Both the position numbers and the translations under genes were made by a program. The notes beneath the pieces were generated by a model that saw nothing but the letters and a program-made list of their open reading frames with translations, had not been told where the DNA came from and searched no databases. From Promethearchaeota archaeon (lineage in GTDB: Archaea; Asgardarchaeota; Lokiarchaeia; Sigyniarchaeales; SOKP01), in NCBI GenBank assembly GCA_019058245.1, contig JAHPZJ010000013.1:73166-137165 (forward strand): DNA of 64,000 nucleotides, written 5' to 3'. Positions 35,675 to 50,390 of this stretch are shown one piece after another (position 1 is the first letter of the stretch; every line of letters begins with the position of its first letter).

Positions 35675-36004
35675 TTATATCTTTTCAATTATTTCTTTCA
35701 AAATCTTTTCCCCGAAACTCCCAATCATGACCCCTTTATTCACAAATATTTCGCCGTTAATCTCAATGTTTTTATTTAAAAGTTTACCATTCTTAAAGAA
35801 TAATAATGCTGGTACTGCATTTATATTAAATTCACGAACCAAATTGATATTTTCATCAATATCAATTTCTATAAACTTAATAAATCCTTTATCCTTAAGT
35901 TTTTTTAAAACAGGGGCGAATAACTTACAAGAACTGCACCATTTAGAACAGATTACAATTATAAATATACCTTCATAAGAGCCATGGATTCCAAACTCTT
36001 TCAT
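35675..36004 (-). CDS. thioredoxin family protein
   Basis: WCSSCK, IDIDEN, NAVPALLFFKNG. Confidence 0.85.
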   Translation of the reverse strand: MKEFGIHGSYEGIFIIVICSKWCSSCKLFAPVLKKLKDKGFIKFIEIDIDENINLVREFNINAVPALLFFKNGKLLNKNIEINGEIFVNKGVMIGSFGEKILKEIIEKI

Positions 36005-36147
36005 ATAATCAAAATTGATATAAATCCCTCTTTATAAACTTCTCTAATATATATTTTCTTAAATTAAAGCGTGAATAATGACCAATACTTTCAATGATTT
36101 CCATAGTTCAATTCGAAGATTTTTTTTGATTAGTTTGCTCTTGAAGG

Positions 36148-36339
36148 TTAATCTTTCAATTTCGCAAAGCAATCTTTACAAAAAAAAATTCTCCGTATCT
36201 TAGAAGCATCCCAAACCATATGGCCTGATTTATGCTTTGTTTCGCAACCCCAACACATTTTATATAAATCAGTGTCAACAAAATATTCATCATCAGTATG
36301 AAAAATATCGTCTTTAATTAATTCTTTATAAGTTCTCAC
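36148..36339 (-). CDS. small hypothetical Zn-finger-like protein
   Basis: CWGC...FCKDC; GTG start with a GGAGATG SD; directly downstream of a palindrome copy. Confidence 0.6.
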   Translation of the reverse strand: MRTYKELIKDDIFHTDDEYFVDTDLYKMCWGCETKHKSGHMVWDASKIRRIFFCKDCFAKLKD

Positions 36340-36370: not shown

Positions 36371-36524
36371 TGAATAATTATTCAATATCAACAGATTGTT
36401 TAATAAAAACCAACATAGAATTTAAGTATTGTGAATAATCATTCAAAACAGTCTATATCATAAAAGTCCCTTTCTTCCTGTACGAAATAAATAATTACAT
36501 TTAAGTTTTAGGAATAATTATTCA
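36371..36524. promoter_or_regulatory. three copies of palindrome TGAATAATTATTCA
   Basis: 36371-36384 perfect; 36432-36445 and 36511-36524 one mismatch each. Confidence 0.85.
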
Positions 36525-36575
36525 CAATCTAGATTTTATTTTTTAAAAATCAAATGAACAATATAAACAAGAAGT

Positions 36576-36962
36576 GTGAGAATTATGAATAAAATTATTG
36601 GTATACCCTCTAATGGTGCTGAACTGTCAGATAATATATCACCACATTTTGGTCACTGTAATTATTTTCTCGGAATTGAAATTTCTAATTATGAAAAATA
36701 TAAAAAAGTCTTTTCTTTAGAGAATAATGGTCATTCAGGCTGTATGGAGCCTGTTATAAATATGAAACAACGAAATGTCTCAGAAATGATTCTAACTGGT
36801 ATCGGAATGCGTCCGTTTATGGGATTTCAACAAGTTAATATAAATTTATTTCAGGGTGTGAATACAACTATAGAAGAAAACATAAGATTATTTATTCAGG
36901 GAAAATTAAGACCAATGCGGAATTCTAGTTGTGCAACTGACTCTAGTCATACTCACACTTAA
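36576..36962 (+). CDS. NifB/NifX (MTH1175-like) metal-cluster-binding protein
   Basis: ISPHFGHC.YF, GIG.RP, G.L. Confidence 0.85.
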   Translation: MRIMNKIIGIPSNGAELSDNISPHFGHCNYFLGIEISNYEKYKKVFSLENNGHSGCMEPVINMKQRNVSEMILTGIGMRPFMGFQQVNINLFQGVNTTIEENIRLFIQGKLRPMRNSSCATDSSHTHT

Positions 36963-37023
36963 TTAAATAAAAATAAAATAAAATAGAATAAAAAAAAACT
37001 AAATATAAATTAGATGAGATATT

Positions 37024-37524
37024 ATGCCAAGCTTTAAAGAAACGTATGAAGCAATCAAGAATGATTGGAATGCTGGAGAGAAAAATTTCAATGTTAAGTG
37101 TGAAATGCTTAGTGAGGGAATGCAGTGTCAAGTAACAATGGGAGCAAAACCACATGTAATGATGATTGATGCTCCTGGTGGATTAGATGGAACTGATGAA
37201 GGACCCTCTCCTCTATTAGCAATATTGGGCTCTATTGGGGCTTGTATAATAGCAGTAACCAAATTCTGGGCAAAAATAATGGATATTAAACTTGAAGAAC
37301 TTGAAGTTTTTTCTCGAGGACATATTAATCTAGGTGCTATTTTTGGGATTGATGATTCAAAATTACCAGGCTACGATAAGCTTGAACCTGTTATTAGGAT
37401 TAAAGCAGATGCTCCAGAAGAAAAAATCAATGAATTAATGGATAAAGTATTAACTCATTGCCCAGTTATCACTAATTTTGGTGGAGCTTCTCCAATTAAT
37501 CCAAAAGTTCAAATTCGAAAATAA
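37024..37524 (+). CDS. OsmC/Ohr family protein
   Basis: D.P..LDGTDEGPSP...LGSIGAC, HCPV. Confidence 0.85.
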   Translation: MPSFKETYEAIKNDWNAGEKNFNVKCEMLSEGMQCQVTMGAKPHVMMIDAPGGLDGTDEGPSPLLAILGSIGACIIAVTKFWAKIMDIKLEELEVFSRGHINLGAIFGIDDSKLPGYDKLEPVIRIKADAPEEKINELMDKVLTHCPVITNFGGASPINPKVQIRK

Positions 37525-37596
37525 GAATAATTTTATCCTTACTTTTTTTTTCTTTTATTATTTTATATAATATGTAATTTTTACAAATTATACTAT

Positions 37597-38034
37597 TTGA
37601 TTAAAAAAACAATGGAAAATGAAAAACTATTTCCGATAAGTATAAATCCAAATTTATGCGTCCTATGTCAAAGATGCTCCTATAGTTGCTCAAGTAAGGC
37701 AATATTCTTTAAGGAATCTAGGCGATATGTGGATTATGATAAATGTCAAGGATGCTTAAAATGTGTAGAGGTATGTGAACATGGTGCTATTGAGGTTATT
37801 TCGATTAAGGAAGGAAAATTAATAGGTTTTAATATTGATCAAGAAAGATGTAAGTTATGCGAAATCTGTCTTGAGAAGAATTTTTGCTTTCAAAATTTAT
37901 TTTTATTAAAAAAAACTAAAAAATCTGGGCATAAATGGATTGAATTTCAAGAAGGAAATTTCCAAAACTGCTTTAAATGTTTAAAGTGTTTTAAATCCTG
38001 CCCATTTAATGCTATTGTACCAAAAATTATTTGA
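37597..38034 (+). CDS. polyferredoxin (four CxxCxxC motifs)
   Basis: CVLCQRC, CQGCLKC, CKLCEIC, CFKCLKC..CP. Confidence 0.85.
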   Translation: MIKKTMENEKLFPISINPNLCVLCQRCSYSCSSKAIFFKESRRYVDYDKCQGCLKCVEVCEHGAIEVISIKEGKLIGFNIDQERCKLCEICLEKNFCFQNLFLLKKTKKSGHKWIEFQEGNFQNCFKCLKCFKSCPFNAIVPKII

Positions 38035-38075
38035 TTATAATTATATAATAAAAAAATCTAACAGAGGTAAATATA

Positions 38076-38264
38076 TTGAGTCGAAGAGGTGGAAGCAGGA
38101 GAGGACAGAGTGGCGGAAGAGGCCGAATGGGTGGTTCTAAAGCCGCTGGACCTAGTGGGAAATGCATTTGTCCAAATTGTAAAAAAACTGTTCCCCATCA
38201 AGTAGGTCTTCCCTGCTATAATCAAACTTGCCCAAAATGTGGGGCTAAAATGACTAGAGGCTGA
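38076..38264 (+). CDS. small Gly/Arg-rich, Cys-rich protein of Orp-type clusters
   Basis: GGRGRMGG..AGPSGKCICPNC...PH..G.PC...CPKCG..M.R; GAGGTA SD. Confidence 0.75.
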   Translation: MSRRGGSRRGQSGGRGRMGGSKAAGPSGKCICPNCKKTVPHQVGLPCYNQTCPKCGAKMTRG

Positions 38265-38279
38265 TATTAAAACATTGCT

Positions 38280-39020
38280 TTAGTTTTTATTTAATAAATT
38301 ATTAATTCTTTTCAATACAATAGAGGCTTTACCCTTTAAAAAAATATCAGCGATGGTATTTGTATAATTTGATTCACTGATGTTTATTTCAATAAATTTT
38401 GCTCTGTTTTTTGCTATGAAAGGAATAGCAGACGCAGGCATTATTTCTCCAGTTGTTCCAATTAATATATACAGATCCGCCAAAGATGTCTCTTCAACTG
38501 ATTTTTCATAAATATCTAGGGGGATTGGTTCTCCAAAAAAAACAAAATCTGGTTTTAATAAACCATGGCATTCTGGACAATGAGGAGGGGATTGTTTGAT
38601 AAACTCACTACTATTATAGTTATGATGACAATTTATGCAAGTTAATGTTCTAGAAGTACCATGAAATTCAATTACATTTCTATTTCCTGCTTTTTGATGT
38701 AAATTATCAATATTTTGAGTTATTATTGACTTGATATATCCCTTCTTCTCCATTTCTGCTAGAATATAATGGGCATCATTAGGAATTGCTTGTCCAAAAA
38801 AATCATAAAAAATTTCTTTAATTAATTCCCAAGATTTTTTTGGGTTTGTCAAAAAATAACTCGTTTCTAAAAAAATAGGATTGTATTTACTCCATAATCC
38901 ATTTTCACCTCGAAATGGTGGAATACCGCTTTCCACTGAAATCCCCGCTCCAGTAAAGACCACTGAATGCTTTGCTTCTGAAATCCACTTACTTGCTAAA
39001 AGATATAATTCTTTATCCAT
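38280..39020 (-). CDS. cobB: NAD-dependent deacylase (sirtuin)
   Basis: TGAGISVESGIP.FRG, ITQNID.LH, HG, two CxxC, KPDFVFFGE. Confidence 0.93.
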   Translation of the reverse strand: MDKELYLLASKWISEAKHSVVFTGAGISVESGIPPFRGENGLWSKYNPIFLETSYFLTNPKKSWELIKEIFYDFFGQAIPNDAHYILAEMEKKGYIKSIITQNIDNLHQKAGNRNVIEFHGTSRTLTCINCHHNYNSSEFIKQSPPHCPECHGLLKPDFVFFGEPIPLDIYEKSVEETSLADLYILIGTTGEIMPASAIPFIAKNRAKFIEINISESNYTNTIADIFLKGKASIVLKRINNLLNKN

Positions 39021-39224
39021 TTATTACTCTCATTCGATAAAAAAATTAATTTTGATAAAAATGAAACTCTACTTATGTATAAAGTATTATTACTAAAAAG
39101 CAGTTAACTTTAATAGTCAGAATAGAGGGAAAAATATATTAGGGAAAGTATTTAATGAAATTATTATTGTTTATATTATACTTATAATTTGATTTAGCTG
39201 AGGAGCACAGGAATATAACTAAAA

Positions 39225-39434
39225 TTGAAGAACGAAAATAGAACATGTAAATGGTATCCTGTTTGCCCAATTAAGTATTTTGTCGATCATGGAAAACTTG
39301 ATAGAAAATGGGTTGAAAATTATTGTTCAATTGGGAATAAAGAGTGTATAAGATATAAGCTAGAAGAAAGTGGAAAATTTCATCCTGATAATATGCTACC
39401 AAATGGTGAAATAAAGAAAGAACTTCATTATTGA
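39225..39434 (+). CDS. small Cys-rich hypothetical protein
   Basis: CKWYPVCP..W...YC...C.RY...PDNMLP.G. Confidence 0.65.
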   Translation: MKNENRTCKWYPVCPIKYFVDHGKLDRKWVENYCSIGNKECIRYKLEESGKFHPDNMLPNGEIKKELHY

Positions 39435-39520
39435 TAGAAACTCTAACTTAAAGATAATTTTTAAAACAAAAAGGAATTAAATACTAATTTATCTTTTCAA
39501 GTATCTAAGTTACCTTATTT

Positions 39521-39934
39521 TTATCCATGAAAATGATGGTGCTCGTGCTCATGATCGTCATCAGCTTCAGTATGGATTTTATCAACTCCATATCCCTTTC
39601 CACCTCCGGGAGCACATAAACTTTCTCCTCCCTTTAGAGTTCCGTCCAGTATTTGTTGAATGACATCATCAATTCTCCCTGTAACTCCTACAATAACATC
39701 AATTCCATATTCATTAAAAAATGCTTCGGCCCTTCGTCCCATACCTCCCGCAATCAAGCAATTTGCTCCTTGTTGATTTACAAATTGTGGTATACTTCCT
39801 ACTGTATGACCTGGATTTGGAAGTATTTTTTTCTCTACTACTTTACTATCTTCAATAGTAATAAAAGTAAATTCTGGTGCTCGACCAAAATGGGCACAAA
39901 CATTTCCTGAATCTGTACTAATAGCGATTTTCAT
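39521..39934 (-). CDS. NifB/NifX family protein with His-rich C-terminus
   Basis: MKIAI, HFGRAPEF, NPGH, AGGMG.RA; tail DDDHEHEHHHFHG. Confidence 0.88.
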   Translation of the reverse strand: MKIAISTDSGNVCAHFGRAPEFTFITIEDSKVVEKKILPNPGHTVGSIPQFVNQQGANCLIAGGMGRRAEAFFNEYGIDVIVGVTGRIDDVIQQILDGTLKGGESLCAPGGGKGYGVDKIHTEADDDHEHEHHHFHG

Positions 39935-39975
39935 TTTTTTTCATTTTAATTTTAAAATTTTATAATTATTAATAA

Positions 39976-39989
39976 TGAATAATTATTCA
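39976..39989. promoter_or_regulatory. palindrome TGAATAATTATTCA
   Basis: Perfect copy between the divergent nifX-like and DUF134 genes; a weaker copy at 40068-40081. Confidence 0.85.
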
Positions 39990-40158
39990 TAATATAAAAA
40001 TTCTTTCTCTTTAAATAATAAGATATGAGGAGTTATAATGTCTTTTAGAAGAATGTTTTAATAATTTTGAATAATTAATAATAAAAACTTGAATTAATAA
40101 TTTTATATAGGGAATAAAATAGTAACAATAGTTCAAATTATCTTTTTGGTGATTTGGT

Positions 40159-40578
40159 ATAGGAAGAAGAAGACATCGAAGATGGGTTAATCAGCCACCT
40201 GAGAATTTTTATTTTATCAAGGATTCAACATTAACGGAAGAATCAATAACTCTAACTGTTGCTGAATTTGAAGCAATGAGATTAAAGCATTATTTAGATA
40301 TGAATCAAAAAGCAGCAGCTGAAAGAATGGGTATCAGTCAACCTACATTCTCAAGAATTCTTGAGAGTGCTCATAAAAAAAATACTCTCGCAATAATCGA
40401 GGGGAAAGATATTAAAGTTTATGGAGGGAATTTTGATTATAAATTAAGTTTTAAAGGTTATGGGTGTTTAAATTGTAATCATGAATGGGAAGATTCTAAT
40501 GCCTCCAAGGAGCGAAAAGTTAATTGTGTAAAATGTGATTCTAATAATGTATATTACTTTGAAAGAGCATTGATTTAG
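40159..40578 (+). CDS. DUF134 (UPF0251) DNA-binding protein with C-terminal Zn ribbon; probable ATA start
   Basis: (I)GRRRHRRWVNQPP...LTVAEFEAMRL..Q..AA..MGISQPTFSRIL.SA; CLNC...CVKC. GGTGA+6 nt precedes ATA. Confidence 0.85.
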   Translation: MGRRRHRRWVNQPPENFYFIKDSTLTEESITLTVAEFEAMRLKHYLDMNQKAAAERMGISQPTFSRILESAHKKNTLAIIEGKDIKVYGGNFDYKLSFKGYGCLNCNHEWEDSNASKERKVNCVKCDSNNVYYFERALI

Positions 40579-40630
40579 AATCTAATTTTGTTAAACCTTT
40601 CTCAAAACTAATATTAATTTTTAAGGAAGA

Positions 40631-41551
40631 TTATTCCCATAGTATTTTTTTTAGATTTTCAAAAATCTTTTTAATAACTATGCTTGCTTTAGAATCAGGA
40701 GCAAATTCGACCACAGATTCAGCATAAGACATCGCTTGTGGTATTGATAAATCAAAGGGAATTTCTCCTAATTTTATATATCCTGTATCAGAGATAAATT
40801 TTTGAAATTCTTCTGTGAAAGGACTCTTTAAATCAGATTTGTTTATAATCAAACCAAATGGAATTCCAAAATGTTGAATAACTTCTATTACACGTATTAA
40901 GTCGTGTAAACCTGAAGGTGTAGGTTCAGAAATCGTTATAACATAGTCTAAATTTGAAATAGTTGCAATTACAGGACAACCTATTCCTGGGGGCCCATCA
41001 ATTAAAATTAAATTACTATTATCAATATCTTTTGAATTGTTTACATATTCTTTAACATCTGATACTAATTTTCCGGAAGATGTACTTCCTAATCGAGTTT
41101 TACCATAAATTAGAGGAAATCCAATTTTACTTTTGTATGAAATAATTTCTCCACTTTTTACAGTATTGATTTCAAAAGCATGTTCTGGACATAAAACTCT
41201 ACATGCTCCACATCCTTCACATTTTAAAAAATCAATTATTGGAATTGAATTTTGGTTATCCCAATTTAAAGCATTAAATTCACAGAAGTGATCGTCAATG
41301 CATTTTTTACAATTCACGCATTGATCTTCGATAAATTTAGCTTTTCTTGTAGCAAAAGTGTCTTCCTTTTTTATTTTTGCTTCATCTAGAGCAGGAAGGA
41401 TAATAGCTAAATTTGGAGCATCAACATCACAATCCATAACAATAACTTGGGTTTTTATATCCTTTTGTGCCAAACTCGCTAATGAAGCCGTTAGTGAAGT
41501 TTTACCTACTCCTCCTTTCCCTGATACTATACCTACTATCTTTCGTTCCAT
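40631..41551 (-). CDS. MinD-superfamily P-loop ATPase with inserted ferredoxin domain
   Basis: SGKGGVGKT, DCDVDAPN, two Cys clusters, DGPPGIGCP, EPTPSGLHDL. Confidence 0.9.
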   Translation of the reverse strand: MERKIVGIVSGKGGVGKTSLTASLASLAQKDIKTQVIVMDCDVDAPNLAIILPALDEAKIKKEDTFATRKAKFIEDQCVNCKKCIDDHFCEFNALNWDNQNSIPIIDFLKCEGCGACRVLCPEHAFEINTVKSGEIISYKSKIGFPLIYGKTRLGSTSSGKLVSDVKEYVNNSKDIDNSNLILIDGPPGIGCPVIATISNLDYVITISEPTPSGLHDLIRVIEVIQHFGIPFGLIINKSDLKSPFTEEFQKFISDTGYIKLGEIPFDLSIPQAMSYAESVVEFAPDSKASIVIKKIFENLKKILWE

Positions 41552-41572
41552 TTATCATTCACTTCTTCTAAA

Positions 41573-42535
41573 TTATTGTTTTATTGTTTTTAACCATTTT
41601 TTCAAATTTTCATAAATTTGAGTAAAACCAATATAACCCGCGCCTTCTCTATTAAATCCGCTGTTTTTTTCCATAATTGGAGTTCCTTGACAATATGATT
41701 CTACGATATCGGAATCTAAAGGAATATCACCCAAAATCTCAATGTTTTCATGCTCTAATTCATTTAAGAATTGTTCTCTAAATCCTAATAATGAAGATCT
41801 ATTTACAATTACACGAGTTTCTTTACCTAATAATTTAATCAATTCCATTATTCTGATTAGATCTAATTTACCAAATTTTGTTGGTTCTGTTATAGGAATT
41901 ACAATATCAGCATCAGCAATTAAAAGTTCAACATCACAATGAGCCCCTGGAGCAGTATCTAAAATAATAATATCAAATTTGCTAGGCTCTTTCTCAATAA
42001 TAGTTTTAAGTTTTTCAAGAAGAGCCTCAACTATCGCAGCTGAACGAGCTTCTGAGGGTTTTAACTCACCTAATAAAAGGGAGAGTCCATTAACAGTAGT
42101 AGAATAAATCCATCCCATCGTTTTTGAATCTGCTTCAATTGCATTTTCAGGACAAATTTTATAACATAATTGACATCCTGAACATAGTGTTAACATTGGA
42201 ATTGGAAATGTATCCTTAACATGTAAAAGAGCATTTGATAAACAATTTTGAGAACATAGTCCACATTTAGAACATTTTTTTTCAATAATTTTAGGTTTGA
42301 AAAATGGAACTTCTTTTTTGTTTTCAAGTTTTCCATTTAATAATAAATACGTATTAGGGTTCTCTACATCACCATCTATAAGTAGAACTTTATTTCCTTC
42401 ATTTTTGAACATAACAGCAAGATTTACAGCACATAATGTTTTTCCTGTTCCTCCTTTACCCCCAGTAATACAAATTACGTTAGGTTTTATATGGTTCATT
42501 AGACCTGTTTTTCTCTCAATTAACTGATATCTCAC
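41573..42535 (-). CDS. MinD-superfamily P-loop ATPase with inserted ferredoxin domain
   Basis: GGKGGTGKT, DGDVENPN, CSKCGLC, CSGCQLC..CP, DTAPG..C, EPTKFG..DL. Confidence 0.9.
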   Translation of the reverse strand: MRYQLIERKTGLMNHIKPNVICITGGKGGTGKTLCAVNLAVMFKNEGNKVLLIDGDVENPNTYLLLNGKLENKKEVPFFKPKIIEKKCSKCGLCSQNCLSNALLHVKDTFPIPMLTLCSGCQLCYKICPENAIEADSKTMGWIYSTTVNGLSLLLGELKPSEARSAAIVEALLEKLKTIIEKEPSKFDIIILDTAPGAHCDVELLIADADIVIPITEPTKFGKLDLIRIMELIKLLGKETRVIVNRSSLLGFREQFLNELEHENIEILGDIPLDSDIVESYCQGTPIMEKNSGFNREGAGYIGFTQIYENLKKWLKTIKQ

Positions 42536-42547
42536 TTTTGGTTGATT

Positions 42548-42991
42548 CTATCTTCCCATTCCACGACCACCACCCATACCTCGACCGCCCCCCATTCCTC
42601 GGCCACCTCCCATTCCATAATGGGATGCAACATTTGAATTGGTGATTTTCTGTAATTTTCCTTCTAAATAGAGATTTATAACATCTTTTATTGTCATAGT
42701 TTCATTTGGAGCTTGAACGAGCTCTAAATTTAAAGCATTCAGTCCATTAGCAGCATTTGGTCCTAAAAATCCAACTATTACAATATTAGCACCATTATTT
42801 CCTATAATTTGAGCTGCTTGTACTCCCGCACCCCCCATCGCATTCGCAGCAGGATTAGGAACTGTTTTTACAGCTTTGATATCATTATTTTCAACTTCGA
42901 CAAATGTGAAACTTGCACATCTTCCAAAACGAGGACTTATCTGATCATTTAAACCTCCATTACCCATTGAAGGTACTGCAATAATACTCAT
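42548..42991 (-). CDS. NifB/NifX (Orange-protein-like) protein with GGGRGM tail
   Basis: SPRFGRC..F, GGAGVQAAQ, GPNA; C-terminal (GGGRGM)x3. Confidence 0.88.
   Translation of the reverse strand: MSIIAVPSMGNGGLNDQISPRFGRCASFTFVEVENNDIKAVKTVPNPAANAMGGAGVQAAQIIGNNGANIVIVGFLGPNAANGLNALNLELVQAPNETMTIKDVINLYLEGKLQKITNSNVASHYGMGGGRGMGGGRGMGGGRGMGR
42551..42618 (-). repeat. 18-bp degenerate tandem repeat encoding MGGGRG
   Basis: Three codon-varied copies at the 3' end of the nifX-like gene. Confidence 0.7.
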
Positions 42992-43040
42992 TTTTTTCTT
43001 TACCTTTTTAAATATAATTTTTAATAATAAGTTTTTAATT

Positions 43041-43060
43041 TAATGAATAATTATTCATTA
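43041..43060. promoter_or_regulatory. 20-bp perfect palindrome TAATGAATAATTATTCATTA
   Basis: Lies between the divergent nifX/minD and mrp/nifU operons. Confidence 0.88.
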
Positions 43061-43105
43061 TTAGTTAATACAAAATTTGAAAATATATAAATTTAACCAT
43101 TAAAT

Positions 43106-44005
43106 TTGATTACAATTAAGAGGTGTAAGATTATTCAAGATAAAGAAATCCCAGATATCGATTTGAAGAAGACAGTTGAACAAGGAAAGAAAGAAAAAAT
43201 GGATCAATTAACAGAAAATATAAAGGAAAATATGAGCAAAATTAAACATAAAATTGTAGTTATATCTGGTAAAGGTGGTGTGGGAAAAACTACTGTAGCA
43301 GTAAATCTTGCTATGAGTTTAGTTAGTTTTGGATTGAGAGTTGGAATTTTAGATGTGGATATTACAGGACCAAATATATTGAAAATGTTGGGTATTGACC
43401 CAAATCTTAAACCAAGGATTGATCCTGAGAAGAAAAGATTTTATCCCGTTAATGGACCTTTAAATCTTAAAACAATGAGTATGGCATTTCTCATTGAAAG
43501 TTCTGACTCACCTGTTATCTGGAGGGGTCCAATGAAAATGAGTGCCGTGAGACAATTTCTGGGGGAAGCAATTTGGGGAGAATTAGATTATTTAATTTGT
43601 GATTTGCCACCAGGAACTTCTGATGAAACACTGGATATTTTACAACTTATTCCAGATGAGAATGTTGTTGTAGTTTCTACTCCTCAAGAAGTAGCATTAA
43701 TGGATGCTAGAAAAACTATAAGAATGGCTCAGATTATGGAACGTAAAGTTTTAGGTATAATTGAGAACATGTCTGGTTTTAATTGTCCTCATTGTGGGGA
43801 ATATATTGATTTATATCCTCCAGGAGGAGTAACAAAAGCAGCTGAAGATTTTAATGTTAAATTATTAGGCAAAATTCCTTTCGAAATTGAAGTAAGTCAG
43901 CAAGGAGATCTAGGAATGCCTTTCACATTAAAATATCCAGATAGTGCATCCACAAAAGCTTTTAAAGAAACAGTTAAGACCATTCGAGAAATATTAGAAA
44001 AATAA
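43106..44005 (+). CDS. mrp: Mrp/NBP35 Fe-S cluster carrier ATPase (start may be ATT at 43133)
   Basis: SGKGGVGKT, DVDITGP, PVIWRGP, DLPPGT, ENMS..CPHC. Confidence 0.93.
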   Translation: MITIKRCKIIQDKEIPDIDLKKTVEQGKKEKMDQLTENIKENMSKIKHKIVVISGKGGVGKTTVAVNLAMSLVSFGLRVGILDVDITGPNILKMLGIDPNLKPRIDPEKKRFYPVNGPLNLKTMSMAFLIESSDSPVIWRGPMKMSAVRQFLGEAIWGELDYLICDLPPGTSDETLDILQLIPDENVVVVSTPQEVALMDARKTIRMAQIMERKVLGIIENMSGFNCPHCGEYIDLYPPGGVTKAAEDFNVKLLGKIPFEIEVSQQGDLGMPFTLKYPDSASTKAFKETVKTIREILEK

Positions 44006-44091
44006 AGAAATAATTTTTTTAAATTTTATAAATTATAAAATTTAAAATAATTTGTTGTATAATAAAAGCAACTTGAATTTGGAATTATAAA

Positions 44092-44532
44092 ATGCCATCA
44101 GATAATTTAGATAAATGGGTAGAAGAGATTCAGAAAGAGATTTTCGAAGAAGAAGTTAAGAGATATAATAAATATATTGTTGAATTGTTTCAAGATCCAA
44201 AAAATTGGGGTAAACCTCCTGAAGATCAAATAAGTGCATGGCATGCTTATGAAGGAAGTTGCGGTGATACTATGCAATTCTTTTTGAAGATAAAAGAAAA
44301 CATTATTGAAAAAGCCAATTTTATTACAGATGGCTGTGGTGCTACTATAGCAGCAGGAAGCCAAATTACTATGATGGTTGAGGGAAAATCCTTAGAATTT
44401 GCAGAAAAATTAAAACCTATTGATATAGATAACGCTTTACAAGGTTTACCCGATGATCATAAACATTGTGCGGAATTAGCAGTAACTACTTTAAAACGTG
44501 CAATTGAGAAATACAAGATCCAAAATCCTTGA
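44092..44532 (+). CDS. NifU/IscU-like Fe-S scaffold
   Basis: PKNWG, GSCGD, DGCG..IA.GS, LP....HCA.LA. Confidence 0.9.
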   Translation: MPSDNLDKWVEEIQKEIFEEEVKRYNKYIVELFQDPKNWGKPPEDQISAWHAYEGSCGDTMQFFLKIKENIIEKANFITDGCGATIAAGSQITMMVEGKSLEFAEKLKPIDIDNALQGLPDDHKHCAELAVTTLKRAIEKYKIQNP

Positions 44533-44550
44533 TTTGTTTTTTTTAATAAT

Positions 44551-45486
44551 ATGAAATATATATATGGTCCCGTTCCTAGTAGGAGATTAGGAAATTCCTT
44601 GGGAATTGATCCACTTCCTTCGAAGACATGCAATTATCAATGTATATATTGTCAATTAGGGAAAACAACTAATTTTACTAATATTAGAAAAAATTTTTTT
44701 CCTAAAGAAGAAATAATATTAGAAATGGAAAAGGCTATAGAATTACATGATAATTCAATAGATTATATTACATTTGTAGGGAGTGGTGAACCCACCTTAT
44801 ATAAGGACTTAAAAGACTTATTAATAAAAGCAAAAGAGTTCTCTAAAAAACCAATTGCAGTCATTACAAATGGAAGTCTACTTAATAATAAAGAAGTTCA
44901 AGATGCTTTAATGCATTCAGATCTGGTTTTACCAAGCCTAGATGCGGGAAATGAACAAATATTTATTAGGATCAATCGTCCTCATCCTTCAATCAACTTT
45001 GAAGATATGATTGATGGTTTTATAAATTTTAGGAATATTTTTTATGGTAAATTCTGGATTGAAGTTATGTTAATAAGAGGAGTAAATGATTCAAAAAAAG
45101 AACTTCTAAAAATTAAAGAAAAGATAGACTTAATAAACCCTAATAGAATTGATATTAATGTTCCAATAAGGCCACCTGTAGAAAAATGGGTAAAAATTCC
45201 TGATAAAGAGACACTTTCATTTTTGAATAAGATCTTCGTTGATTATAAAAATATTAATTTTCCTGAGGAAGGAAAATTTAGTATTTATTCATCAGACTTG
45301 GAAACGGAACTATTATCAATACTTGAAAGACATCCAATGAGGCAAGATCAAATTATTAAAACATTTAGTTCTGCTAAATTTACTGAAGATGAAATAATTA
45401 CACAATTAGAACAACTTAAATCTCTAAAAAAGATAAAAGATATTCTATATAACAATCAAATATTTTGGATATTAGAAATAAATTAA
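44551..45486 (+). CDS. radical SAM protein
   Basis: YGPVPSRRLG.SLG, CNYQCIYCQLG, GSGEPTL. Confidence 0.9.
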   Translation: MKYIYGPVPSRRLGNSLGIDPLPSKTCNYQCIYCQLGKTTNFTNIRKNFFPKEEIILEMEKAIELHDNSIDYITFVGSGEPTLYKDLKDLLIKAKEFSKKPIAVITNGSLLNNKEVQDALMHSDLVLPSLDAGNEQIFIRINRPHPSINFEDMIDGFINFRNIFYGKFWIEVMLIRGVNDSKKELLKIKEKIDLINPNRIDINVPIRPPVEKWVKIPDKETLSFLNKIFVDYKNINFPEEGKFSIYSSDLETELLSILERHPMRQDQIIKTFSSAKFTEDEIITQLEQLKSLKKIKDILYNNQIFWILEIN

Positions 45487-45525
45487 ATCTATAATTCTGT
45501 TTAATAAATAAAAGTATTTGAACAC

Positions 45526-45906
45526 TTAATATTCAAGAAGTAGATCTTCTAAAGCATTAGTTACTTCAGGATTAAGATGATGCTCAATTTCACAAGATAA
45601 TTTTTCTACAATTGAATTATTTTTTAATTTAAGAACATTTCTAAAAAACCTAGATAAGCAATTATAGTTTTTGAGAGTGTTCTGAGCAATTTCCCTTCCT
45701 TTTTTAGTTAATCTTAGAGCTTTTCTAGGCTTCCAATTTATAAAACCATTCTTTTGTAGATTATATAACATGTTAGTAACTGAAGATGGTTTAACTTTTA
45801 AAAATTTAGAAATTTCGGAATTACAAGTCCAACCGCCTTTATTATTCTTAGCAATTAGATAAATTGCTTTTAGATAATCCTCATAACTTTCATAGATTTC
45901 TGACAT
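45526..45906 (-). CDS. DtxR/MntR metal-dependent transcriptional regulator
   Basis: EDYLKAIY, V.PSSVT.ML, LT.KG, CEIEHH. Confidence 0.9.
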   Translation of the reverse strand: MSEIYESYEDYLKAIYLIAKNNKGGWTCNSEISKFLKVKPSSVTNMLYNLQKNGFINWKPRKALRLTKKGREIAQNTLKNYNCLSRFFRNVLKLKNNSIVEKLSCEIEHHLNPEVTNALEDLLLEY

Positions 45907-45953
45907 TTTGAAACCTTTATTGAAATAACTTAAAAATTTAAAAAAAAAATAAT

Positions 45954-46322
45954 TTATTCTTTATTTTCTAATTCTGAAATTCTTTTAGAGATATTGTCGA
46001 GAGCATTTTTAATTCCGTTCATTTCATTTTCTAGATAATCCTTTTCTTGTTTGAGCATGGTTAACTGATTTTCTGGTGTTGAAACTGGTAATGATGCTGC
46101 AGGATAAGGAGGATACACCGGATCTCTATAACCATAACCCAAGCCCCAGCCATAACCTCCGCCTCTACCATATCCAAAACCTCTGCCTCTTCCCCAGCCT
46201 CTACCATATCCCATACCAGGACCTCTTGTATATCCTGGTGATTCAAAACCAGCACAATATCCTAAAGCTCTACCTGTCATTGGACCTAATCCTCTAGGTC
46301 CTGTTCTATCTCCACCGGGCAT
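45954..46322 (-). CDS. DUF5320 family protein
   Basis: MPGGDRTGP.G.GPMTGR..GYCAG, GRG-rich middle, C-terminal coiled coil. Confidence 0.88.
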   Translation of the reverse strand: MPGGDRTGPRGLGPMTGRALGYCAGFESPGYTRGPGMGYGRGWGRGRGFGYGRGGGYGWGLGYGYRDPVYPPYPAASLPVSTPENQLTMLKQEKDYLENEMNGIKNALDNISKRISELENKE

Positions 46323-46350
46323 ATTTTTTTTTAACCTCTATTAATTTTTA

Positions 46351-46425
46351 TGAATAATTATTCACTATATAATCTCATTATATATTATGTTGGCAAGTTA
46401 TTTAAACATTATGAATAATTATTCG
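46351..46425. promoter_or_regulatory. two copies of palindrome TGAATAATTATTCA flanking a TATA-like box
   Basis: 46351-46364 perfect; 46412-46425 one mismatch; TATTTAAA between them. Confidence 0.85.
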
Positions 46426-46619
46426 AAAAAAAAAATTTTATATTTAATATTTTATAATTAATTTCAGCAGATTATTGATATTTATATCAATAGGCATAAC
46501 TTTTTCTTTTAAAATATAGAAGGGAGATTTAATACATTGAAAATCTCTGTTTTCGTAGCTTATATTTAAAAAAAAATAGTATTAATATTATAAAAATAAA
46601 AAATCAAAGGTGATAATTT

Positions 46620-46985
46620 ATTAATCAAGAAAAAAAACATATTTTATATGTTCAAACTAGTCATGACCCCGAACGACAATATTCACCATTAGTATTAGCT
46701 CAAACTGCTAAAGCAATGGATATTGAAGCTACTGTTTATTATTTAGGCACGGCATTAAGAATACTAAAACCTGGAGAAGCTGAAAAAATAAAACTTGGTG
46801 CTTTTCCAAGTGTAAAGGAAATGATTGATAAAACTTTGGAGCAAGGAATAAAGATATTAGTTTGTGAGGCATCAAAAAGAATGTTAGGATGGGAAAAAGT
46901 AGATTTAATTCCAGGTGTGAAAATTGTTGGAGCTGCGACATTAAATGATTTAGTATTAGAAGTAGATGCAACTCAATGGTTTTAA
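46620..46985 (+). CDS. DsrE/DsrF-like sulfur-relay protein; probable ATT start
   Basis: In-frame extension (I)NQEKKHILYVQTSHDPERQYSPLVLAQTAKAM; G.KILVCE.S, IVGAAT. GGTGA+6 nt precedes ATT. Confidence 0.8.
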   Translation: MNQEKKHILYVQTSHDPERQYSPLVLAQTAKAMDIEATVYYLGTALRILKPGEAEKIKLGAFPSVKEMIDKTLEQGIKILVCEASKRMLGWEKVDLIPGVKIVGAATLNDLVLEVDATQWF

Positions 46986-47246
46986 ACTGAAAAATTTATA
47001 TCAACTTTTAAATTTTTAAAGCATATAAAAATCGTTAGAAATGTTTAAAAGTCGTTATGTATTATATTGATTTAGTAAAATATCTTCATAAATATTAAAT
47101 TTATATATTTATGTGTGGTATATTAATTTAAAGATAAAATAATTTTTAATTTTTTTATATTATTTATTAATAATTTGATACGCCTAAATTTTAATTCAAT
47201 GAATAATTCAATTATTATAGAAGAACAATGATCTTGGTGAAAGTAA

Positions 47247-47546
47247 ATTAATAATTTTTTATCAAAAGAAAAAGATAAGGAGACCGTTTTTTCTGCTCCG
47301 CTGATTAAATGTTTAACAGAATGTAAAAAAGAAGAAGAAGTTACTATAGTAAGTGTAAGAGCAGGTTATAACGCAAAAAGACGTCTTGCAAATTTAGGAA
47401 TTGTTCCAGGAGTAAAAATTAAAAAAAAACAATCTGCTCCTATGAGAGGACCTTTACAAATTATTGTTAAAGGAACATCCTTAGTAATCGGAAGGGGTTT
47501 AGCAGCAAAAATCTTTGTAAAATGCGATCCGAGTTGTGTACTATAG
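47247..47546 (+). CDS. feoA: ferrous iron transport protein FeoA (missed by the ORF track); probable ATT start
   Basis: Hand translation ...CLTECKKEEEVTIVSVRAGYNAKRRLANLGIVPGVKIKKKQSAPMRGPLQIIVKGTSLVIGRGLAAKIFV...; directly upstream of feoB. Confidence 0.88.
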   Translation: MNNFLSKEKDKETVFSAPLIKCLTECKKEEEVTIVSVRAGYNAKRRLANLGIVPGVKIKKKQSAPMRGPLQIIVKGTSLVIGRGLAAKIFVKCDPSCVL

Positions 47547-47618
47547 AGAACTAAAATAATTTTTATTAATATTTCATAAGAGGATTCTAAGTCAAGATAT
47601 AAACTAATAATAGAAATT

Positions 47619-49772
47619 ATGAGTTGTAATTTACCAAAAAGAAAAAAACGATTTAATCAAGAAATACATAATTATTCAATTAATATTGCATTAGCTGGTA
47701 ATCCAAATGTAGGGAAATCAGTTATATTTAACCAGTTAACAGGTCTTTCACAGACGATAGGAAATTGGCCTGGAAAAACTGTAGAGAAAATGGAAGGTTA
47801 TTTAGATTTTCTTGGTTATCATTTCAATATTGTAGATCTTCCTGGTATCTATTCATTATCAACATATAGTATTGAAGAGATTGTAAGTAGAGAATATATT
47901 ATCTCGGAAGAAGTTGATTTAATCATAAATGTAATTGATGCTACCAATTTGGAACGTAATTTATTTTTCACATTTCAACTTTTAGAGTTAAATGTCCCAA
48001 TTATTATTGCAATTAATCAAATGGATATTTTGCATAAGAGAAATATGGATATTGATTTTGAAAAACTAGAAAGTATATTTAAATTGCCAGTTCTCCCAGT
48101 AGTTGCAATTCATGGAATTGGAGTTCATCAACTACTTGAAGAAGCAATTGAAATGGTTGTATATAAACATCCACACTCACATCATAATAGCGACAGGTCC
48201 AAGAAATTTAATCATCATTCTCATGGTTATCATCGAACAGAACATATTCATAAAAGAGTAACATCGTGGTCATCATTAAAAAAAGAATTTAAATTTCCTA
48301 ATTTGTCCAATATTCTTTCCTTTGGAAAAGAAATTGAGTTAAAAGTTAAAGAAATTATAACCTCACTAGAGGATTATGAAAAACTTGATACTAATATAAA
48401 TTATCCTCTAAGGTTTTTGGCAATAAAACTTTTAGAAAATGATGATGAAATCAAAAAATTATTGGTAGATAATGAACCTTCCCCTCAAATAATACAAGTT
48501 GTTGAGAAATCTAGAAAAGAACTTGAAGATATTCATGGGGAGGATATTAATACTGTGATTTCATCAGAAATCTATAATAACATCCATAAAATTATTGATC
48601 AAGTTTTATTTGTGAAATCTGGTAAACAAGCTAAGAGAATTTCCATTGCTGACAGAATTGATCATCTTACTACCCATTCTATATGGGGATATATCATTTT
48701 GATATCTGTACTTTTCGGGACTTTTATGTTCACATTCATAATAGGCAATTTTTTTGGAGGTATATTAGATAATTTATATAGTGGATGGAGTGAAAGAATT
48801 TACTCCTTGTTTGGTGAAAATTCTCTGATTATAAAAATATTTTGGGATGGTGCGATGGGAGGTTTAATTGGCGCAATTGGTGGTGTTTTAGTATTTGTAA
48901 TTCCATTTTTTTTAATTATTGAAATCTTACAAGATTCTGGTTATTTACCGAGAGCTGCCTTTTTAATGGATAGGATCATGCACTCTCTCGGTGTTCATGG
49001 AAAAACAATTATTCCTATGATATTAGGCTTTGGATGTAATGTACCTGCTTGTGCAGGGTGTAGAATTATGGAAACTGAACGAGAAAAAAAAATATCTATT
49101 GTTTTAACATCTCTAGTTCCATGCGGAGCAACTATGACCGTAGTTATGGGTTTAGTAGGACGATACTTAGGTTTTGAATGGCTATTTTTGCTATTTGCGA
49201 TTAACTTTATAGTAATTTTGATTGTAGGCAGAATTCTAAATAAGATAATGCCCGGGACTTGTACAGAATTGATTATGGAAATGCATGAATATCGTGTTCC
49301 AAATTACAGTGTTATTGCTAAACAGACATGGCTAAGGACGAAAGAATTTGTAAATAAGGCTCTACCAATAATAGTTATTTTAGGAATTATTTTAGAAATA
49401 CTTTTGATTTTCAATGCTTTAGAACCAGTAAATTTTGTTTTATCACCTATTTCTGTACTTTGGCTGGGTTTACCTGTTACTGTTGGTGTATTTTTGATTT
49501 ATGGAATCTTACGTAAAGAGTTGACATTAGTACTTCTTGCTGTTTTTGCTCAAAATGTGGGATTAACAGTGTTAGAACTTTTGACTCCTATTCAGATGAT
49601 AGTATTTAGTTTAGTTACTATGCTTTATATCCCTTGTTTTGCTACAATTATCGTTATTGCTAAACAAACAAATTGGAAATACGCATTAAAAATATCTGCA
49701 ATGGAGATTGCTATAGCTTTGTTAATCGGAGGAATTATTAATTGGGGTTTCATTTTTATCTTTTCAATCTAA
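47619..49772 (+). CDS. feoB: ferrous iron transporter FeoB
   Basis: GNPNVGKS, GNWPGKTVE, DLPG.YSL, NQMD, DSGYLPR, GFGCNVP, YIPC. Confidence 0.96.
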   Translation: MSCNLPKRKKRFNQEIHNYSINIALAGNPNVGKSVIFNQLTGLSQTIGNWPGKTVEKMEGYLDFLGYHFNIVDLPGIYSLSTYSIEEIVSREYIISEEVDLIINVIDATNLERNLFFTFQLLELNVPIIIAINQMDILHKRNMDIDFEKLESIFKLPVLPVVAIHGIGVHQLLEEAIEMVVYKHPHSHHNSDRSKKFNHHSHGYHRTEHIHKRVTSWSSLKKEFKFPNLSNILSFGKEIELKVKEIITSLEDYEKLDTNINYPLRFLAIKLLENDDEIKKLLVDNEPSPQIIQVVEKSRKELEDIHGEDINTVISSEIYNNIHKIIDQVLFVKSGKQAKRISIADRIDHLTTHSIWGYIILISVLFGTFMFTFIIGNFFGGILDNLYSGWSERIYSLFGENSLIIKIFWDGAMGGLIGAIGGVLVFVIPFFLIIEILQDSGYLPRAAFLMDRIMHSLGVHGKTIIPMILGFGCNVPACAGCRIMETEREKKISIVLTSLVPCGATMTVVMGLVGRYLGFEWLFLLFAINFIVILIVGRILNKIMPGTCTELIMEMHEYRVPNYSVIAKQTWLRTKEFVNKALPIIVILGIILEILLIFNALEPVNFVLSPISVLWLGLPVTVGVFLIYGILRKELTLVLLAVFAQNVGLTVLELLTPIQMIVFSLVTMLYIPCFATIIVIAKQTNWKYALKISAMEIAIALLIGGIINWGFIFIFSI

Positions 49773-50030: not shown

Positions 50031-50390
50031 TTAATTTCTCCCATGTTTTTACAGGATATTAAAAGTTTAATTTTAATCAATAAAAAAATTTCTTAATAAG
50101 ATTAGAATTCTTGTTTTTTCTTAATAGACTTAAATAAATCCAAATTTTTTTCTAGATGATTTGTTAGAAGAAAATCTTTTTTAACTTTTTTATGCCCAAT
50201 AATTGTGAATAATTATATAAAATCGATTCAGAAGTTTTCTTAAATTTTAACACATCAGTCGTTTTTTAAATTTATTTATTTATTCAACTTTAGATTCATA
50301 AACATAATATTTATAAATATAAGTATCTCACTTTTTCTTTGATTTTTTCTTATAAGGGAAGAAATTTACAATTTAATTAAAAGTAAAAAG

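Follow-up and report, generated by a model that had tools for sequence, protein, structure and literature searches.

A conserved 14-base palindrome as the predicted operator of a DUF134 repressor in an iron-sulfur gene cluster of a Promethearchaeota archaeon

Here, we have analysed a 64,000-bp stretch of DNA from a Promethearchaeota archaeon (C13:73166-137165; hereafter the window), in which the 14-base palindrome TGAATAATTATTCA stands in front of the main transcription units of an iron-sulfur (Fe-S)/metal gene cluster. Judged by its sequence conservation, the palindrome is a real and widely conserved genetic switch. We propose, with a probability of about 0.78, that it is the predicted operator of a repressor of the DUF134/UPF0251 family, which would control an Fe-S cluster regulon of the orange-protein (ORP) type. 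A second regulator gene in the cluster, encoding a DtxR/MntR-like protein (DtxR-A), appears to be a target of this regulon and not the reader of the palindrome. A preliminary description of the window had named the palindrome as the operator of a local regulator, with DUF134 as the best candidate and the DtxR homolog as the alternative.

The source assembly comprises 3,086,466 bp in 31 contigs, has a GC content of 29% and is 76% complete. The names under which DUF134 homologs are recorded put the organism among the Asgard archaea, with MAGs of the Promethearchaeota/Lokiarchaeota type. Scanning the window returned four perfect and three one-mismatch copies of TGAATAATTATTCA (Table 1), all intergenic, and the exact word occurred in none of 100 dinucleotide-preserving shuffles, so that the copies first described are confirmed. 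No fifth perfect copy was found in the window, as had been said, nor in the whole assembly, and of the 13 copies in the genome that deviate by one base or none, 7 fall within the 10 kb of the cluster. The flanks of the window copies are unrelated to each other. The loose pattern TGAAT-N4-ATTCA is not enriched in this genome (16 matches versus 15 for a swapped-half control); the signal resides in the full 14-20-bp word, which in the window extends to (T)TA-TGAATAWWTATTCA-TAA, plus its placement.

Of the weaker copies mentioned in the preliminary description, the half-degenerate one at 40068 is probably a real site, as the block in the DUF134 promoter is kept in 9-10 of the 11 genus members. A second TGAAT lies 22 nt downstream of it, immediately ahead of a TTTTATATA box. 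The copy at 47200 did not hold up. This element, in the region 47196-47220 upstream of feoA, reads TGAAT-A-ATTCA with its halves 1 nt apart (TGAATAATTCA) inside a direct repeat AATTCAAT, and its spacing is wrong for the architecture of the 14-bp operator. The copy at 50206 has two mismatches. That the DUF134 promoter has a site of its own is true of the half-degenerate copy at 40068 and not of the perfect copy at 39976, which shares the same intergenic region and belongs to the NifX-like 2 side of it, with a TATA-like TTTTTATATT directly before the operator in the NifX-like 2 orientation.

The regulon holds for the units of the cluster and is not exclusively local. In the same genome, a copy TGAATAAATATTCA lies 178 bp before the gene of a NiFe-hydrogenase small subunit (C13:326946) and a copy TGAATGATAATTCA 216 bp before the gene of an HdrA/MvhD-like Fe-S flavoprotein (C24:65365). 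Both distal sites are likely to be operator copies; the one in the hydrogenase promoter is perfect in a relative (G018; L014/L043).

To what extent the sites are conserved came from 121 genomes of the order, with the reversed word as a control. The perfect word was present in 77 of them, while the reversed word was almost always absent (0 copies). We annotated 190 related loci with the window proteins and counted a site where TGAAT-N4-ATTCA stood within 250 bp upstream of a gene. Such a site precedes DUF5320 in 97%, orf63 in 92%, NifX1 in 89%, Mrp in 86%, NifX2 in 83% and NifX3 in 78% of the related loci, and DUF134 in 39%. For genes internal to operons (MinD, radical S-adenosylmethionine (SAM), IscU and DtxR), the figure is 0-7%. 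With 78-97% set against 0-7%, the palindrome behaves like an operator for one dedicated regulator, placed before the principal Fe-S/metal transcription units as first described. Its position before orthologous genes is kept across families with GC contents from 29% to 60%, the spacing of about 61 bp between tandem sites recurs in relatives, and the distance of about 3.07 kb between the copies at 39976 and 43044 is kept in the genus, pairs at that distance recurring. In relatives, further perfect sites are found before the NiFe-hydrogenase operon, a prismane/carbon monoxide dehydrogenase-like gene, a ferredoxin gene and feoAB, the last being divergent from DUF5320 and sharing its proper sites. 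Genus members that have none of DUF134, DtxR-A and DUF5320 retain Mrp, but there is no site before it. The word is therefore an operator linked to the module, and neither a repeat nor a general promoter element.

What kind of protein could read such a word is suggested by DUF134 itself. The gene is present as a single copy in the assembly, and its product of 139 residues matches the Pfam family at 75.8 bits in the full frame (model positions 5-96; cut-off 27). It combines a basic N-terminus with a helix-turn-helix (HTH) of the sigma-70 region 4 type and a C-terminal Cys4 ribbon. In the AlphaFold model (confidence score, pLDDT, 81), the basic N-terminus is disordered, the HTH consists of three helices, and residues 98-136 form a beta unit resembling a zinc ribbon that holds four invariant cysteines (C103, C106, C123 and C126). 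A search of the Protein Data Bank (PDB) with the family profile (hmmsearch) found the DNA-binding domain of Bacillus subtilis DeoR (7bhy, 8r7y; E 1e-7), and Foldseek placed the HTH of the model on 7bhy_A with a root-mean-square deviation of 0.7 Å over 41 residues at 41% identity. The HTH also superposes on sigma-70 region 4 domains. With the whole model, Foldseek gave no match at E 0.001 or better, the informative fits being the local ones to the HTH and the zinc ribbon.

The comparison with DeoR bears directly on the operator. The DeoR domain, from a member of the SorC family that acts at the dra-nupC-pdp operator, has a three-helix HTH of the same type (core ISRPTVSRLL against ISQPTFSRIL in DUF134) and binds the inverted repeat TTGAACAAAATTCAA (TTGAA-N5-TTCAA) as a dimer, so that its TTGAA/TTCAA halves share their core with TGAAT/ATTCA (PMC11229326). 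Since the DeoR head reads TGAA/TTCA half-sites with one base less between them (N5, compared with N6 in the DUF134 word), recognition of TGAAT-N4-ATTCA by DUF134 is structurally plausible. Unlike DUF134, DeoR possesses a large effector domain for sugar phosphates, and it works as a tetramer on a composite operator of 39 bp (PMC11229326). The corresponding C-terminal domain of SorC/DeoR-type proteins, of about 250 residues, is missing from the 139-residue DUF134, which is therefore not a SorC member and resembles it only in the DNA-reading head. DUF134 further differs in its basic N-terminus and Cys4 ribbon, in being archaeal here and in a predicted regulon of Fe-S/metal-cluster genes. A prediction of the complex of two DUF134 copies scored 0.41 against a mark of 0.42 and was used neither for nor against dimeric binding.

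The start of the DUF134 gene is unusual. The frame is open from 40153, and relatives begin with M-G-R-R-R at a codon that reads ATA here, 5-6 nt after a GGTGAT Shine-Dalgarno sequence (window 40146-40161). This ATA start is kept in 10 of 11 genus members, and among the 80 loci of the family described below, ATA is found in 33 and ATG in 45. The open reading frame truncated to an ATG matches PF02001 at 50.8 bits; gene callers that accept only ATG, GTG or TTG shorten the protein to 100 residues.

That the word accompanies DUF134 was observed in metagenome loci outside the lineage. Searching genome contigs with a DUF134 alignment profile had returned close Promethearchaeota only, which were used for statistics. 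A metagenome scan from an alignment of five short DUF134 representatives gave 80 loci (L193-L272; 281,654 bp), which range in GC content from 26% to 68%, form 72 distinct clusters at 90% nucleotide identity and encode DUF134 proteins about 41% identical to that of the window. Their neighbours include NifX-like, DUF5320, MinD-ferredoxin and Mrp genes. These loci contain 101 sites of TGAAT-N4-ATTCA, with at least one site in 64 of the 80 loci (56 of the 72 clusters). Two composition-matched palindromic controls had 0 sites each in the same loci, and shuffled loci had 0.78 sites on average and 4 at most. The extended consensus, TTA-TGAATAtaTATTCA-TAA, is one that the window copies fit too. About 24 loci have a site that stops 2-30 nt short of the DUF134 ATG, where it directly follows a TTTATATA/TTTAAATA box or fills the spacer of TTGATT-N17-TATAAT. 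In most of the others, a DUF5320-DUF134 pair follows the site, which is often doubled at a distance of 24 bp instead of about 61 bp; DUF5320 is very often immediately upstream of DUF134 in these lineages. No DtxR homolog was found within 2.5 kb in any of the 80 loci. As 101 sites occur at DUF134 loci without DtxR, the word travels with DUF134 and not with DtxR. Together with the homology of the HTH to the DeoR domain, this upholds the earlier preference for DUF134 over DtxR as the candidate reader. Similar TGAATAAT elements are also found upstream of stand-alone DUF134 genes of other genera.

How DUF134 may act on these promoters can be proposed from the arrangement of the sites. We argue that a DUF134 dimer would set its two sigma-70-region-4-type HTH units on the TGAAT/ATTCA half-sites, which lie on or beside the TATA box and the start of transcription at six promoters, most of them divergent, and that binding would block assembly of the archaeal pre-initiation complex and lead to repression. 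Archaeal repressors are known to act at or just downstream of the TATA box, an example being MDR1 of Archaeoglobus, a DtxR homolog. The operator described here likewise follows a TATA-like box and precedes the start codon or transcription start, while the protein family and the word differ. The controlled set would include the three NifX-like proteins, the two MinD-ferredoxin ATPases, Mrp/NBP35, the IscU-like and the radical-SAM proteins, as well as OsmC, ferredoxin, thioredoxin with orf63 and the DUF5320-DtxR operon; the NiFe-hydrogenase operon and the HdrA/MvhD-like gene are probable distal targets. The half-degenerate site and the ATA start of DUF134 could provide weak autoregulation and a low level of the repressor. 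The repressor might then be released by an Fe-S, metal-cluster or redox signal, which the invariant Cys4 ribbon could sense or a NifX-like partner convey.

A bolder view is that DUF134 is a cross-domain sensor-repressor of Fe-S/metal-cluster status, with a near-identical 14-20-bp operator (TGAAT-N4-ATTCA) in bacteria as well as in archaea, both Asgard and other. Under its control would be ORP-type cluster-handling genes and, here, also the DtxR-like regulator, the hydrogenase and Hdr-like genes, the cue being a cluster that its Cys4 ribbon binds or that a NifX-like partner passes on. We consider this extension rather unlikely as it stands; if true, it would amount to an undescribed circuit of anaerobes similar to those of IscR and RirA.

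Several observations weigh against DUF134 as the reader or against the mechanism proposed for it. We infer DUF134 binding, its dimeric form, repression and release by Fe-S, metal-cluster or redox state. The direction of control is read only from the position of the sites, which makes repression a fairly probable choice; the nature of the signal is read from the same position and is the weakest step of the proposal. In contrast to the metagenome lineages, most genera of the family have stand-alone DUF134 genes without a full palindrome within 200 bp. In 12 genera, the DUF5320-(orf63)-DtxR-A operon is always preceded by strong tandem sites, and in two genera (g13 and g20) tandem sites stand directly before DtxR-A, the classical signature of an autoregulated factor. 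In addition, DUF134 was not detected by hidden Markov model in five metagenome-assembled genomes (MAGs), namely G085 (95% complete), G094 (100%), G048, G091 and G066. The first four have sites at the usual places, and the short contig of G066 has none. Gaps in the MAGs can explain the missing DUF134, though this is not proven. Finally, feoAB has the same site in relatives, as might be expected if the reader were a DtxR that senses iron.

These observations favour, in part, the alternative that DtxR-A reads the palindrome and, with Fe2+, represses its own operon, the Fe-S module, DUF134 and, in relatives, feoAB. In all 11 genera examined that have the A-type gene, its operon is preceded by tandem sites of high quality. 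DtxR-A has the domain architecture of the DtxR/MntR family, with a winged helix (PF01325, 54 bits) and a metal-binding/dimerisation domain (PF02742, 39.5 bits), and its closest solved relative is MntR (E 1e-12). Among the metal ligands, Asp9 and Cys104-x2-Glu107-His108 are present, with Lys at the position of MntR Glu11 and Tyr or Asn at that of His77. The protein is MntR-like overall and keeps a DtxR-like Cys-x2-Glu-His motif, a further point for this alternative.

To compare the two candidates, DUF134, DtxR-A, its paralog B and the sites were cross-tabulated over the 121 genomes of the order, and the discriminating loci were then inspected. Counting sites with one mismatch allowed gave too much noise for a presence/absence test, and sites persist both in genomes without detectable DtxR-A and in genomes without detectable DUF134. 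The class with DUF134 present and DtxR-A absent was rejected as an artefact of contig ends: in G076, a contig stops after DUF5320 and the 17 N-terminal residues of DtxR-A, which removes at least this genome from the evidence against DtxR-A, and the clusters of G009, G109 and G115 likewise end at contig breaks. The MAG contigs of relatives (L030, L031, L033, L036 and L074) break strikingly often inside the cluster, which gives a false absence of DtxR-A. Presence and absence could not identify the binder because contig breaks mimic gene loss. The co-occurrence comparison called for in the preliminary description was therefore undecided within the order, and it was the metagenome loci that spoke for DUF134. 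DtxR-A had been favoured at somewhat better than even odds after the presence/absence stage, and this preference was dropped after the metagenome-locus results. A comparison of the recognition helices of DtxR-A, paralog B and the homologs of families f2 and f4 was also tried as a test of the reader and did not discriminate.

Other evidence does separate the two proteins. In G032, a complete genome of the sister family f2 on a single contig, sites precede feoAB, a NifX operon ending in DUF134, and a DUF5320 gene with another DUF134 behind it, while the only DtxR homolog lies at a distance of 1.4 Mb and lacks a site. Since these sites occur without a linked DtxR, we read DtxR-A as a conserved target and a second-tier regulator. 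Most genomes of the family of the window carry paralog B, which is 45-50% identical to DtxR-A, and its loci have no TGAAT site nearby despite a similar recognition helix. The characterised boxes of the DtxR family are other words, such as TTTAGGC-N3-CCTAAA of archaeal TroR (PMC10783522), and the window has no match to the DtxR/IdeR/TroR-type box TTAGG-N4-CCTAA, nor to TGTGC-N4-GCACA. Moreover, the 101 metagenome sites lie at DUF134 loci free of DtxR, and if DtxR-A were the reader, the homology of DUF134 to DeoR, a reader of TGAA/TTCA, would be a coincidence. We consider DtxR-A an improbable reader. In one locus of a GC-rich sister family (62% GC; L073, G029 C442:306-2248), DUF134, a DtxR-like gene and a radical-SAM gene follow head to tail after a MinD-ferredoxin gene, and therefore both regulators can share one operon.

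Still less probable is that a third factor reads the word, that both regulators bind overlapping sites, or that the palindrome is a symmetric core of B recognition element and TATA box driving transcription in both directions. The word is A/T-rich and palindromic and lies in divergent promoters, at 43044 about 50 nt from both start codons, and strict co-presence with the sites is demonstrable for neither regulator gene. However, a general promoter element would not be expected in one module only, with 0 other perfect copies in 3 Mb, nor as tandem pairs about 61 bp or 24 bp apart, and a promoter core would not be expected downstream of separate TATA-like boxes or within bacterial -35/-10 spacers; no third DNA-binding gene accompanies the sites. 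That the copies are what is left of some repeated or mobile sequence, or chance words in AT-rich DNA, might be suggested by the 29% GC content and the unenriched loose pattern, but is in practice refuted by the shuffles, the genome scan, the unrelated flanks, the occurrence in the 121 genomes and the upstream-site percentages at orthologous genes across a wide range of GC content.

With DUF134 as the preferred reader, the cluster can be compared with known systems of similar gene content. Archaea lack sigma-54. The gene content of the window matches the orp operons DVU2103-DVU2109 of Desulfovibrio vulgaris Hildenborough, which are governed by sigma-54, IHF and OrpR (PMC6345978, PMC8359166, PMC3897727). 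Both have Orp3/Orp4-like ATPases, Orp5/Orp8-like NifX/Di-Nase proteins and Mrp/NBP35 in divergent operons with one dedicated regulator. In D. vulgaris, an Fe-S-containing enhancer-binding protein activates at sigma-54 promoters, whereas here a small HTH protein would act on palindromic sites at archaeal promoters. The window further differs in that Mrp is not fused to Di-Nase and in the added IscU-like, radical-SAM, DUF5320 and DtxR genes. The regulons of archaeal DtxR proteins (Haloferax TroR, Halobacterium Idr/SirR; PMC10783522, PMC3074139) resemble that of the window in their tandem palindromes at iron-related promoters, in a DtxR-family gene inside the regulon and in repression as the default logic. 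The TroR box, however, is absent from the window, where the DtxR-like gene seems to be the target of another factor.

We would like to point out what the assignment would mean. Our full-text literature search found no paper on the function of DUF134/UPF0251, a family of 'unknown function' that comprises 4,882 representative clusters at 50% identity (profile search, E 0.001 or better). Set against this literature, DUF134 would be a new repressor family with a predicted operator, and since an operator and a set of targets are defined and the DNA-reading head has a homolog of solved structure, its role can be tested directly. A simple repressor switch would be linked to the orange-protein/NifX-like/MinD-ferredoxin module, which is poorly understood in anaerobes. 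The circuit would also be one of few concrete cis-regulatory circuits for Asgard archaea, with a DtxR-like metalloregulator placed beneath the first regulator. For annotation, it cautions that an operator should not be assigned to the nearest classical metalloregulator.

The genes of the cluster were identified from Pfam matches (Table 1). With its two MinD-type ATPases carrying ferredoxin inserts, its NifX/Di-Nase-domain proteins and Mrp/NBP35, the cluster has the content of an ORP cluster as described in PMC6345978, after which the MinD-ferredoxin ATPases are named. A SIR2 gene lies between the poly-ferredoxin gene and NifX-like 2. No paper on DUF5320 was found in the full-text literature search.

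Table 1. Operator copies and genes of the Fe-S/metal cluster, in positions of the window
Feature	Position	Strand	Remark
Operator copy 1, perfect	36371..36384	.	31 nt upstream of orf63 start (minus strand)
Operator copy TGAATAATCATTCA, 1 mismatch	36432..36445	.	61 bp from the copy at 36371
Operator copy GGAATAATTATTCA, 1 mismatch	36511..36524	.	60 nt upstream of NifX-like 1 ATG at 36585
Operator copy, perfect	39976..39989	.	41 nt upstream of NifX-like 2 (minus strand)
Half-degenerate operator TGAATAATTAATAA	40068..40081	.	77 nt upstream of DUF134 start
Operator copy, perfect, divergent region	43044..43057	.	52 nt from NifX-like 3 start, 48 nt from Mrp start
Operator copy, perfect	46351..46364	.	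28 nt upstream of DUF5320 (minus strand)
Operator copy TGAATAATTATTCG, 1 mismatch	46412..46425	.	61 bp from 46351
orf63 (small CxxC protein, no Pfam family), then thioredoxin	35675..36339	-	Predicted target unit
NifX-like 1 (Nitro_FeMo-Co), OsmC-like protein, poly-ferredoxin	36585..38034	+	Predicted target unit
NifX-like 2 (Nitro_FeMo-Co, His-rich tail)	39521..39934	-	Predicted target gene
DUF134/UPF0251 regulator, proposed reader of the palindrome	40159..40578	+	Pfam PF02001
NifX-like 3, then two MinD-type ATPases with inserted ferredoxin domains (Orp3/Orp4-like)	40631..42991	-	Predicted target operon
Mrp/NBP35 (ParA PF10609), NifU_N/IscU-like protein, radical-SAM protein	43106..45486	+	Predicted target operon
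DtxR/MntR-like metalloregulator DtxR-A, 126 aa, second gene of the DUF5320 operon	45526..45906	-	PF01325, PF02742
DUF5320 (Gly-rich N-terminus, coiled-coil C-terminus), heads the operon whose sites are strongest	45954..46322	-	
DsrE-like gene, FeoA (about 47300-47546), FeoB	46716..49772	+	

Whether DsrE, FeoA and FeoB belong to the regulon here is uncertain, as only the odd-spaced element at 47200 precedes feoA. Both the DsrE-like gene (start region 46596-46720) and FeoA (start region 47238-47300) have no canonical ATG, GTG or TTG at the expected N-terminus; their conserved frames reach upstream of the first listed start, with possible ATT or CTG starts after the GGTGAT or AAGGAG sequences that resemble ribosome-binding sites. 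A second perfect palindrome, TATTGATATTTATATCAATA, with 9-bp arms, lies at 46473-46492, flanked by the DUF5320 sites and the DsrE-like gene. This palindrome was considered as a second conserved element and rejected, being not conserved in relatives; elsewhere in the genome, only a related pair on C30 resembles it. In one relative (G085, L038:4866-5435), a gene for a small Ras/Rab-like GTPase sits between two operator copies, a place that elsewhere holds the divergent promoter only.

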